From Escherichia coli (lineage in GTDB: Bacteria > Pseudomonadota > Gammaproteobacteria > Enterobacterales > Enterobacteriaceae), in the NCBI RefSeq assembly GCF_003334335.1, contig NZ_QOWQ01000166.1: 632 nt of DNA. One strand, written 5' to 3'. The notes under the pieces were generated by a model. That model was not told where the DNA came from. It saw nothing but the letters and a program-made list of their open reading frames with translations, and ran no database searches. Shown piece after piece: positions 1 to 632 of this stretch (positions are counted from its first letter, which is position 1; every line of letters starts with the position of its first letter). Both the position numbers and the translations under genes were made by a program.

Positions 1-62
1 CCGCAGGCGCTTACGACCAGCGGCAACGTCAGCGCGCAGAGTTTCATTTTCAGCTCTCGCAT
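1..62 (-). CDS. Rz1: o-spanin outer-membrane lipoprotein, lambda Rz1-like, embedded in the +1 frame of Rz (partial)
   Basis: Minus-strand ATG at 62..60, with a second in-frame ATG at 47..45, in the +1 frame relative to Rz. Translation to the window edge: [20 protein letters not shown]. This is a lipoprotein-type signal peptide with a lipobox-like VVSAC, the Cys codon at 5..3. It closely parallels the lambda Rz1 N-terminus as I recall it (MLKLKMMLCVMMLPLVVVGC). An embedded out-of-frame o-spanin inside the i-spanin gene is the established lambda arrangement. Confidence 0.8.
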
Positions 63-282
63 CGGCTAATTCCCTCGAGTATCTGGCATCAAGTGCAGCA
101 ACATCACGCTGGCGCTGCTGCATATCAGTAATGGTTGCATTTGCCTGCTCCAGCTCACTGACTTTTTTATCGCGCTGCTCTTTGTAGGTTATGGCGTTAT
201 CACGGTAATGATTCAGCCCCAGACTAAGCACACCACAGGCTACCAGCATGACAATAATCACCACACACAGAACACGGTTCAT
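1..282 (-). CDS. Rz: i-spanin, lambda Rz-like (N-terminal 94 codons; 3' end lies beyond the window start)
   Basis: Minus-strand ORF with ATG at 282..280 (complement), open to position 1. Hand translation: [94 protein letters not shown]. It has a short N-terminus, one hydrophobic signal-anchor helix, then a charged, Ala/Arg/Glu/Gln-rich segment typical of the periplasmic coiled-coil of i-spanins. Several blocks match lambda Rz as I recall it ([37 protein letters not shown]). Not in the ORF track, presumably because it is truncated by the window edge. Confidence 0.9.
71..76 (-). promoter_or_regulatory. Shine-Dalgarno-like element (GAGGGA) upstream of the Rz1 start
   Basis: On the minus strand GAGGGA lies 8 nt upstream of the Rz1 ATG at 62..60. 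It sits inside the Rz reading frame, as expected for an embedded gene. Assigned on sequence complementarity and spacing only. Confidence 0.35.
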
Positions 283-283
283 A

Positions 284-370
284 TCACCACCAACGAATTG
301 CCCAGACCAGAACAGCAATGGCCACAATACGAATGGCAAATGCCATTGCCCGAATAAGTTCAGCACTCAT
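284..370 (-). CDS. small single-helix hydrophobic peptide, 28 aa, function unknown (paralog C of a tandem triplet)
   Basis: Minus-strand ATG at 370..368, TGA at 286..284. Translation: [28 protein letters not shown]. Short polar N-terminus, then a hydrophobic helix with an Arg/Trp C-terminal end. It aligns without gaps to the neighbouring ORF at 382..498 (RAMAFAI versus RALAFAI). The stop is 1 nt from the Rz ATG. Below the ORF-track length cutoff. The upstream SD is weak (AAAAAG), so expression may depend on coupling. Confidence 0.5.
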
Positions 371-381
371 CTTTTTAAAGT

Positions 382-498
382 TCACGATTTCAGCGCAATG
401 ACCAGTTTTGCCAGCCCATACAGCATCGGAGACACAGCAATACCAACAGCCACCCACTTAATAGCAAAAGCCAGCGCTCTGCTGATGTCATCAGTCAC
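382..498 (-). CDS. small single-helix hydrophobic peptide, about 38 aa, function unknown (paralog B of a tandem triplet)
   Basis: Same frame as the ORF-track entry 382..597, but I place the start at GTG 498..496; an alternative GTG at 504..502 overlaps the upstream stop as GTGA. Stop TGA at 384..382. Translation from GTG498: (M)TDDISRALAFAIKWVAVGIAVSPMLYGLAKLVIALKS. The portion of the track ORF upstream of 504 (CDCRYFIFTNAGCSFSVPRLGDVVF...) is not helix-like and is antisense-frame overlap with the better-supported ORF at 501..632. The N-terminus MTDDIS and core RALAFAIKWVAV match paralog C, and VGIAVSPML matches paralog A. Confidence 0.5.
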   Translation of the reverse strand: MTDDISRALAFAIKWVAVGIAVSPMLYGLAKLVIALKS

Positions 499-500
499 TG

Positions 501-632
501 TCACCCCAGCAGCCCCGACGAAGACAACATCACCCAGGCGAGGGACAGAAAAAGAGCAACCAGCATTAGTGAAAATGAAATACCGACAATCACACACAGG
601 ACCTTTGCCGGCGTTATGAGTTTGTCTGACAT
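501..632 (-). CDS. small single-helix hydrophobic peptide, 43 aa if the ATG at the window edge is the true start, function unknown (paralog A of a tandem triplet)
   Basis: Minus-strand ATG at 632..630, exactly at the window edge, so upstream extension cannot be excluded. Stop TGA at 503..501. Translation: MSDKLITPAKVLCVIVGISFSLMLVALFLSLAWVMLSSSGLLG. Polar N-terminus with two Lys, then a hydrophobic stretch of about 26 residues. The N-terminus MSDKLI parallels MTDDIS and MSAELI in the next two ORFs, which supports this ATG as a genuine start. Core VGISFSLML matches VGIAVSPML in paralog B. Not in the ORF track. Confidence 0.45.
   Translation of the reverse strand: MSDKLITPAKVLCVIVGISFSLMLVALFLSLAWVMLSSSGLLG

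Follow-up and report, generated by a model that had tools for sequence, protein, structure and literature searches.

The antiholin S21-71 of phage 21 is co-encoded with a holin and a SAR endolysin and adjusts the timing of lysis. Another group of small hydrophobic peptides, the chromosomal type I toxins (Ldr, Hok, TisB, Ibs), is similar in size and in hydrophobic single-helix character to the B and C proteins described here. In phage P1 the small membrane proteins LydB, LydC and LydD lie beside the holin and the SAR endolysin and adjust lysis timing (PMC9025707). Phage Mu encodes the releasin gp25 (DUF2730), a non-holin membrane protein without which the SAR endolysin is not released; of its 99 amino acids, 73 make up an acidic cytoplasmic domain, and its TMD (N-out, C-in) is N-terminal (PMC9239132).

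The stretch of DNA analysed here (the window, 632 bases of Escherichia coli) was found to be 100% identical to positions 24331–24962 of Escherichia phage PhiR5_1 (PV340545) and also to prophages in many E. coli chromosomes. It is the minus strand of the lysis cassette in the late region of a lambdoid (Stx-type) prophage, with the gene order pinholin S, SAR endolysin R, Ant, ORF0, A, B', C and Rz/Rz1. S is a 71-aa S21-like class II holin (pinholin), and the N terminus of R is of the SAR type (YGLSAAVLALIAAGASAP). In the matching records the genes come in the order SASA esterase, DUF1378, DUF826, class II holin S, lysozyme R, a KilAC antirepressor, three or four tiny ORFs, Rz/Rz1 and terminase. 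A, B and C were already annotated as CDS by PGAP, B (WP_042004856.1) and C (WP_032140280.1) being RefSeq hypothetical proteins, and in EDL933 the C-long form is annotated as 'unknown protein encoded within prophage CP-933O'. These genes are thus annotated as hypothetical proteins and grouped in PHROGs, and are not a new kind of element; calling the two small ORFs real, related genes was ordinary and correct, and the call falls on a very widespread small-protein family in a well-studied cassette. The families phrog_1115, phrog_3246 and phrog_4493 and the RefSeq entries represent the same proteins, but they are silent on function, on the two tail subtypes and on the connection with the lysis cassette.

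Tiny membrane ORFs and inserts were concentrated in the interval between R and Rz, a hot spot that in some loci also contains the KilAC antirepressor and the 31-aa ORF0. One locus (L101, 7346-8047, minus strand) had four tiny ORFs in a row, namely a 50-aa ORF, a B-type ORF with a different head (MFVDKTEN...), a 49-aa ORF and finally C-short. The head of the 49-aa ORF (MIKAETT...) was also found fused to a B tail in the database protein P0097. A second example of the hot spot is seen in L001 (4937-6350).

All genes of the window are on the minus strand. Gene A (501..632) encodes a 43-aa single-helix membrane protein (MSDKLITPAKVLCVIVGISFSLMLVALFLSLAWVMLSSSGLLG; PGAP WP_001280935.1) that matched phrog_4906 (E=4.5e-21). 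Its similarity to B and to C was not significant (p 0.08 and 0.14), and by protein comparison A represents a family distinct from both. Constraint was much weaker on A than on B and C, with 22 synonymous vs 25–26 amino-acid variants. Eight loci (L025-L029 type, e.g. L025) had an allele of A that is unchanged in length (132 nt) but has its C-terminal half in an alternative frame (...LVALRLDDVVFVGDAGVRGI-stop).

Gene B' (382..504) is a 5'-truncated copy of a B-type member and encodes (TV)TDDISRALAFAIKWVAVGIAVSPMLYGLAKLVIALKS. With GTG 504 as its start codon, which shares the sequence GTGA with the stop of A, the product has 40 aa; it has 38 aa from GTG 498 (498..382) and 51 aa from the CTG at 537 that was chosen by PGAP. 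GTG 498 was kept in all 38 of the B' junctions compared and GTG 504 in 37 of them. The start annotation of B is discordant between RefSeq (CTG 537) and the phage record (GTG 498), so that the locus also reveals how inconsistently the start codons of very small genes are annotated.

Gene C (284..370) is a 28-aa C-type short form with an ATG start at 370, and was present on about 1000 contigs. It is followed by the i-spanin gene Rz (1..282), of which the window contains the first 94 codons and which extends past the window; it is annotated as 'lysis protein' or 'endopeptidase Rz'. The start of the o-spanin gene Rz1 is embedded in Rz (1..62) and was recognized by translation of the +1 frame of Rz, which contains a lipobox. 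Plasmid and RefSeq records have an 'Rz1 family lipoprotein' at this position, and the Rz1 homologue of L090 is a 61-aa ORF at 1908–2093.

By their sequences, B' and C are real, related protein-coding genes of one small family of putative single-helix inner-membrane proteins, and N-terminally shortened members of its two tail subtypes. The B-type has a full length of 60 aa, M(E/A/S/R)KYKRILLRLTMKNGLE(L/V)xAPVTDDISRALAFAIKWVAVGIAVSPMLYGLAKLVIALKS, and B-long starts with AGGGAG followed by ATG. The full-length C-type has 50 aa, (M/V)(G/R)KYKRFFLRLSIMKGIEVETPASLDLTRAAAFAIR(L/I)VA(V/I)AVL(I/V)WA(V/I)RWW, and C-long starts with GTG (ATG in one variant) after a GGAG motif. C-long was recovered with a degenerate DNA pattern search for the C tail, and the B relatives with the 48-aa and 60-aa forms of B. 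The two long forms aligned without gaps with 21 of 50 residues identical, and the pattern KYKRxxLRL...G(L/I)E...P...RAxAFAI(K/R)xVA is common to both. A full-length member (about 50–60 aa) begins with a basic segment, KYKRxxLRL, and continues through the linker G(L/I)Ex(D/E/K)(A/T)P to an invariant AFAI(K/R) core, which opens the hydrophobic helix, and to a tail, which is either of the B-type (...WVAVGIAVSPMLYGLAKLVIALKS) or of the C-type, ending in RWW. In the family alignment A1 the five invariant columns were A-F-A-I and one further Ala (A39).

B' matched phrog_1115 at E=3e-24, and the three families phrog_4493, phrog_1115 and phrog_3246 together with E values of 3e-24, 6.9e-19 and 1.5e-16. 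C matched the same three, phrog_4493 at E=3.8e-6, phrog_3246 at E=9.2e-5 and phrog_1115 at E=0.053. A profile search of 1.84 billion representatives yielded only 28 clusters, all of them tiny proteins. Pfam-A gave no match to B-long even at E up to 10, with holin PF04971 and DUF2730 included in the search, and the family had no match in NCBIfam or in a PDB sequence-profile search. With PADLOC models (E up to 1) no match was obtained for A, B-long, C-long, C or ORF0. Literature searches with peptide strings, Q8X4B6, lysis-cassette and Stx terms and EHEC small-protein ribosome profiling returned nothing on these proteins.

AF2 predicted one long helix (residues 22–59, pLDDT ~90), preceded by an N-terminal helix of low confidence. 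The B/C helix is moderately hydrophobic and Ala/Gly-rich, with 33–39% small residues and one conserved K/R. Its hydropathy was 1.86 in B and 2.47 in C, in comparison to 1.84 for S21 TMD2, 1.67 for the SAR domain and 3.16 for the Rz anchor, and in these properties the helix is more like TMD2 of the pinholin and the SAR domain than like the anchors of Rz or A. When B-long and C-long were compared with the holin, the SAR domain and the Rz TMD, no similarity was significant after multiple-test correction; B-long scored 36 against S (p ~0.009 before correction for six tests), and C-long against S was not significant. The hydrophobic stretch of C has an Arg in it and little length for spanning a membrane, which counts against the reading as inner-membrane lysis proteins that is favoured below.

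The promoter scan of the window detected no promoter-like site. Three terminator-like hairpins, weak and located inside ORFs, were judged to be chance. As B and C are on the same strand as S, R and Rz/Rz1, have no promoter or terminator of their own, and have starts and stops that overlap or abut those of their neighbours, they are expected to be on the late transcript together with these genes. In L101 the start of C overlaps the stop of the upstream ORF as ATGA.

Compared with the described systems, B and C resemble Mu gp25 in being small membrane proteins whose genes follow a SAR endolysin gene at a distance of a few genes. They are unlike gp25 in having 28–60 aa, a basic N terminus and a C-terminal helix, which is the opposite layout, and in giving no DUF2730 match; in addition a pinholin is present in the B/C cassettes and absent from Mu. 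By analogy, gp25 would be a plausible functional model for the gene directly after the SAR endolysin. As in the phage 21 and P1 systems, the small membrane proteins are co-encoded with a holin, here of the S21 type, and a SAR endolysin, but comparison with S revealed no significant sequence similarity, and B and C have a single helix and no charged C-terminal tail. Holins have at least one TMD and a highly charged hydrophilic C-terminal domain, whereas the C terminus of B and C is 'KS' or 'RWW' and their charge is N-terminal, and all PHROG matches of B and C were to families without an assigned function instead of holin profiles. The family fits the structural definition of neither the releasin nor the holin-like accessories, which are its nearest functional precedents. 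Type I toxin-antitoxin systems have their own promoter and an antisense RNA, and B and C differ from them in having neither a promoter of their own nor a match to an antisense RNA or toxin family, and in being embedded in an operon.

On balance we favour, with some reservation, the reading that B' and C are real family genes of the lysis cassette that were assembled by recombination and act as accessory inner-membrane lysis factors. Position and physico-chemistry suggest an accessory inner-membrane lysis protein as the most likely role of the family. The proteins would be inserted into the inner membrane, with the N terminus probably inside and the C terminus outside, and could tune pinholin hole formation, release of the SAR endolysin or the function of the spanins via helix-helix contacts, and thereby modulate the timing of lysis. 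In the lambdoid (Stx-type, often Stx-converting) prophages of Escherichia, Shigella and Salmonella the family was always located between the SAR endolysin R and Rz on the same strand, and in most loci B-long or C-long begins about 180–250 nt past the stop of a SAR-type R; these lambdoid loci are close relatives, and their shared synteny is largely one observation. Since many lambdoid cassettes work with R and Rz adjacent to each other, as do rrrQ and rzpQ in the Qin prophage of K-12 with no B/C-type gene between them, any role of B and C should be dispensable or modulatory.

A more specific and rather tentative proposal, to which we give limited weight, is that B and C, and perhaps A and ORF0, form an unrecognised class of lysis-timing modulators specific to systems with a pinholin and a SAR endolysin. 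The Ala/Gly-rich helix with its basic residue would then pair with the pinholin TMD2 or with the SAR domain of R, and triggering would be delayed or accelerated. Lysis timing sets the burst size and, in Stx phages, the release of toxin. If the proposal is true, the timing and amount of Shiga-toxin release might also be influenced, given that the family is in the late operon of Stx-type prophages and in a third of the complete E. coli genomes. A new accessory part of the pinholin/SAR-endolysin/spanin pathway would be of interest to researchers of phage lysis and of STEC.

Another possible but doubtful explanation is that B' and C are real and selected genes but cargo ('morons') that ride in a gap of the late operon where recombination is tolerated, and that they have some role other than lysis, such as superinfection exclusion, membrane toxicity or an effect on host fitness. 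The mosaic nature of the interval from R to Rz, where unrelated inserts (Ant, ORF0, A and the small membrane ORFs of L101) are found, is consistent with cargo, and so is the existence of cassettes without B/C genes. A diverged family member in L209, located after tail-fibre genes and before unknown ORFs with no recognisable lysis neighbours, points in the same direction. However, in two other phage architectures the diverged members are again placed against holin or endolysin genes, which makes two of the three diverged members examined. In L210 a lambda-like capsid module is followed by two tandem family members, a holin (phrog_920), two small membrane ORFs and a SAR-type endolysin, and in L211 the family member overlaps the start of a PF00959 endolysin. 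Moreover, expression in the lysogen is not expected of genes that have no promoter-like site, and the results with PADLOC and with antisense RNA and toxin families, all without a match, also argue against cargo.

The junction between C and Rz (280..295, minus strand) reads CGTTGGTGGTGAtATG, and the last codons of C encode R-W-W-stop. These codons contain GGTGGTGA, a Shine-Dalgarno-like stretch, and the ATG of Rz is 1 base after the stop of C. Among about 119 such junctions CGTTGGTGGTGA was invariant except for CGC in two, and the 1-nt spacing between the C stop and the Rz ATG was invariant, though the N terminus of Rz varies. We also observed that two unrelated small-protein families, the B/C type and the ORF0 type with its W(K/R)F(I/L)L(I/V)W motif, end in (I/V)RWW-stop directly before the next lysis gene, which is either Rz or the endolysin. 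Their RWW codons, CGN-TGG-TGG-TGA/TAA, form a GGTGGT Shine-Dalgarno-like site, and examples are located at 284-295 of the window, at 2304-2522 of L007, at 3805-3903 of L210 and at 3001-3129 of L211.

These features could be taken to mean that the ORFs are translated spacers only, which deliver ribosomes to Rz by coupling or provide its ribosome-binding site, and that the peptides are functionless. The stop of C next to the Rz start, the invariant end of C with its likeness to a ribosome-binding site, and the RWW-stop ends of two unrelated families would all agree with this explanation, which we nevertheless consider very improbable in view of the variation among alleles. Pooled over the C core, pN/pS was 0.22, and it was still 0.21 after removal of the last six codons, which overlap the ribosome-binding site of Rz; conservation also extends well upstream of the junction. 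In the B core, pN/pS was 0.05 when the B' of the window was set against 11 distinct B-long cores, from which it differs by 3–8 synonymous changes and 0–3 non-synonymous ones, and in loci with the order B-long, A, Rz the B gene is not adjacent to Rz. Furthermore, the N-terminal motif is kept in both B-long and C-long.

The other comparisons of alleles gave the same picture. Thirteen distinct B core sequences had 6/1/17 variable sites at the three codon positions, with 17 synonymous vs 6 amino-acid variants, and C-long had 7/1/26 variable sites, with 30 synonymous vs 6. The C-short alleles (MSAEL.., MSADF.., MSTEF..) had pairwise dN/dS values of 0.24–0.33, and between B-long and C-long pN/pS was 0.58 (CI 0.40–0.86, p=0.004). 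The allele patterns indicate that purifying selection acts on the B and C peptides. In 581 of the 612 genomes with the B'–C tandem the block has an identity of at least 99%, and selection on the truncated B' and C copies was therefore deduced from comparison of alleles and not from divergence of orthologues.

The sequence-only reading had started from the ungapped alignment of B' and C within the window, and had argued that frequent synonymous codons for identical amino acids reflect purifying selection on the peptides after duplication. Its coordinates were exact, and we recovered all the codon pairs that it quoted (R aga/cgg, A gcg/gca, A gct/gca, A gct/gcc twice, V gtg/gtc), as well as the replacement of K by R through aag to cgt. 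In the in-register alignment 9 of 28 residues were identical, 6 of these 9 by different codons, and the identities at the three codon positions were 17/18/11 of 28. Its statement that conservation is higher at the protein than at the nucleotide level does not hold literally, as amino-acid identity was 32% and nucleotide identity 55%, but it holds in the intended sense, since pS (0.63) exceeded pN (0.40) by Nei-Gojobori counts. This excess of pS over pN was reversed in both shifted frames of the alignment. Within the window alone the synonymous excess was marginal, because only 28 codons can be compared (pN/pS 0.63, bootstrap CI 0.38–1.11; 147 of 3000 column shuffles, p≈0.05), and it was the B-long/C-long, B' core and C-short comparisons with relatives from outside the window that bore out purifying selection on these frames.

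We also performed the proposed shuffle test. The BLOSUM62 local score of B' against C was 47, in comparison to 23.2±4.6 for shuffles of matched composition, and it was reached by 4 of 20,000 shuffles. When the hydrophobic segment alone was shuffled, 5 of 20,000 reached 47, and none of 20,000 reached the in-register sum. As a control, other real small transmembrane peptides of the region scored 15–37. Interruption of the orthologous frames by stops, which had been named as the outcome that would speak against coding, was not observed: the frames were intact in 178 of 180 copies, with B open in 121/122 and C unchanged in length in 57/58, the remaining C copy having an in-frame 3-nt insertion that leaves it open as well (58/58). 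The sole disrupted copy is a B' with a 1-nt deletion after ...DDISRALA in phage phiSTEC1589-Stx1c (L003, 2479-2750), where the C gene is absent. The claim of genuine translation is well founded as to purifying selection on the frames, and translation itself is made probable by this selection and by the gene layout. It was correct, too, that the similarity is not a recent DNA repeat or slippage product, as pS was about 0.6, near saturation, and a DNA-level repeat search gave only short matches at chance level, the best being 15 nt at 80%.

In a comparison of all six frames the synonymous excess was highest in the annotated sense frame for A, B and C, and second in the antisense frame that shares wobble positions, as is expected of a shadow frame (14/17 synonymous in B, 28/33 in C). 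That the minus strand is non-coding, with the likeness of B' and C being chance or a decayed repeat and the real feature being the plus-strand ORF at 248–619 or an RNA element, is already contradicted and has practically no probability left: the long ORF does cover A, B' and C and the wobble-sharing antisense frame does have the synonymous excess just given, but the excess is greatest in the sense frames, the ORF fails over C (interrupted in 5 of 22 variants, with 13 synonymous vs 56 non-synonymous variants), Rfam gave no match on either strand of the window at E up to 1, the DNA repeat is absent, and the protein homology is backed by shuffle tests and profile matches. We rejected this plus-strand ORF of 123 codons, which lies opposite C, B' and most of A, as a shadow frame; only over B does it fall in the favourable one, and it is kept open by the codon composition of the sense genes.

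Homology of B' and C was confirmed. The assumption of a duplication in the sequence-only reading is probably wrong in detail. The comparisons suggest that the B'–C tandem most likely arose when prophages with one type each recombined, and not by local duplication. Recombination is favoured because B' and C are near synonymous saturation, in comparison to a pS of about 0.19 between B' and B-long, and because chimeras that switch at the AFAI core occur in both directions, P0107 having a B head and a C tail and P0102/P0206 a C-short head and a B tail. The slot between R and Rz was also found to be occupied singly, by C-long alone in L090 and by B-long alone in 6 loci. Mosaic recombination at the short AFAI core would thus reshuffle the heads and tails of very small genes at this locus. 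Among the fetched loci the commonest layouts were R, B-long, A, Rz; R, C-long, (Rz); and R, (Ant), ORF0, A, B', C, Rz. Some loci had R, B-long, A, B', C, Rz, and others R, B-long, C, Rz. Altogether B/C DNA was detected in 1779 of 5426 complete E. coli genomes, and the B'–C tandem in 612 of them.

The two tails may be related by a deletion. A good alignment is obtained between the final ten residues of C and the terminus of B (AKLVIALKS), and the diverged members P0210, P0215 and P0219 have tails of intermediate length, P0210 combining a body of B length with a ...LAVRWW end. It may thus be that the C-type tail is a B-type one that has lost about 10 internal residues, in which case the ungapped register of B' and C could be wrong for approximately the last ten residues. 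In one viral contig (L119, from 2870) the C ORF was without its RWW-stop end and continued in frame into a long ORF, which may be tail-fibre-like; this is probably a rearranged or misassembled prophage.

Upstream of GTG 504 the frame of B' was open for 31 codons (505-597 of the window, minus strand), overlapping the 3' half of A, and the CTG start at 537 used by PGAP falls inside this open stretch. Databases contain proteins of 79–83 aa in which A is fused to B', in at least six different forms (P0077, P0078, P0079, P0081, P0082 and P0099). Errors in sequencing or real variation could account for them, or they may hint at frameshifting. Each of them had its own indel junction, one being a change from T5 to T6 in CTTTTTC (the run at 549-553).
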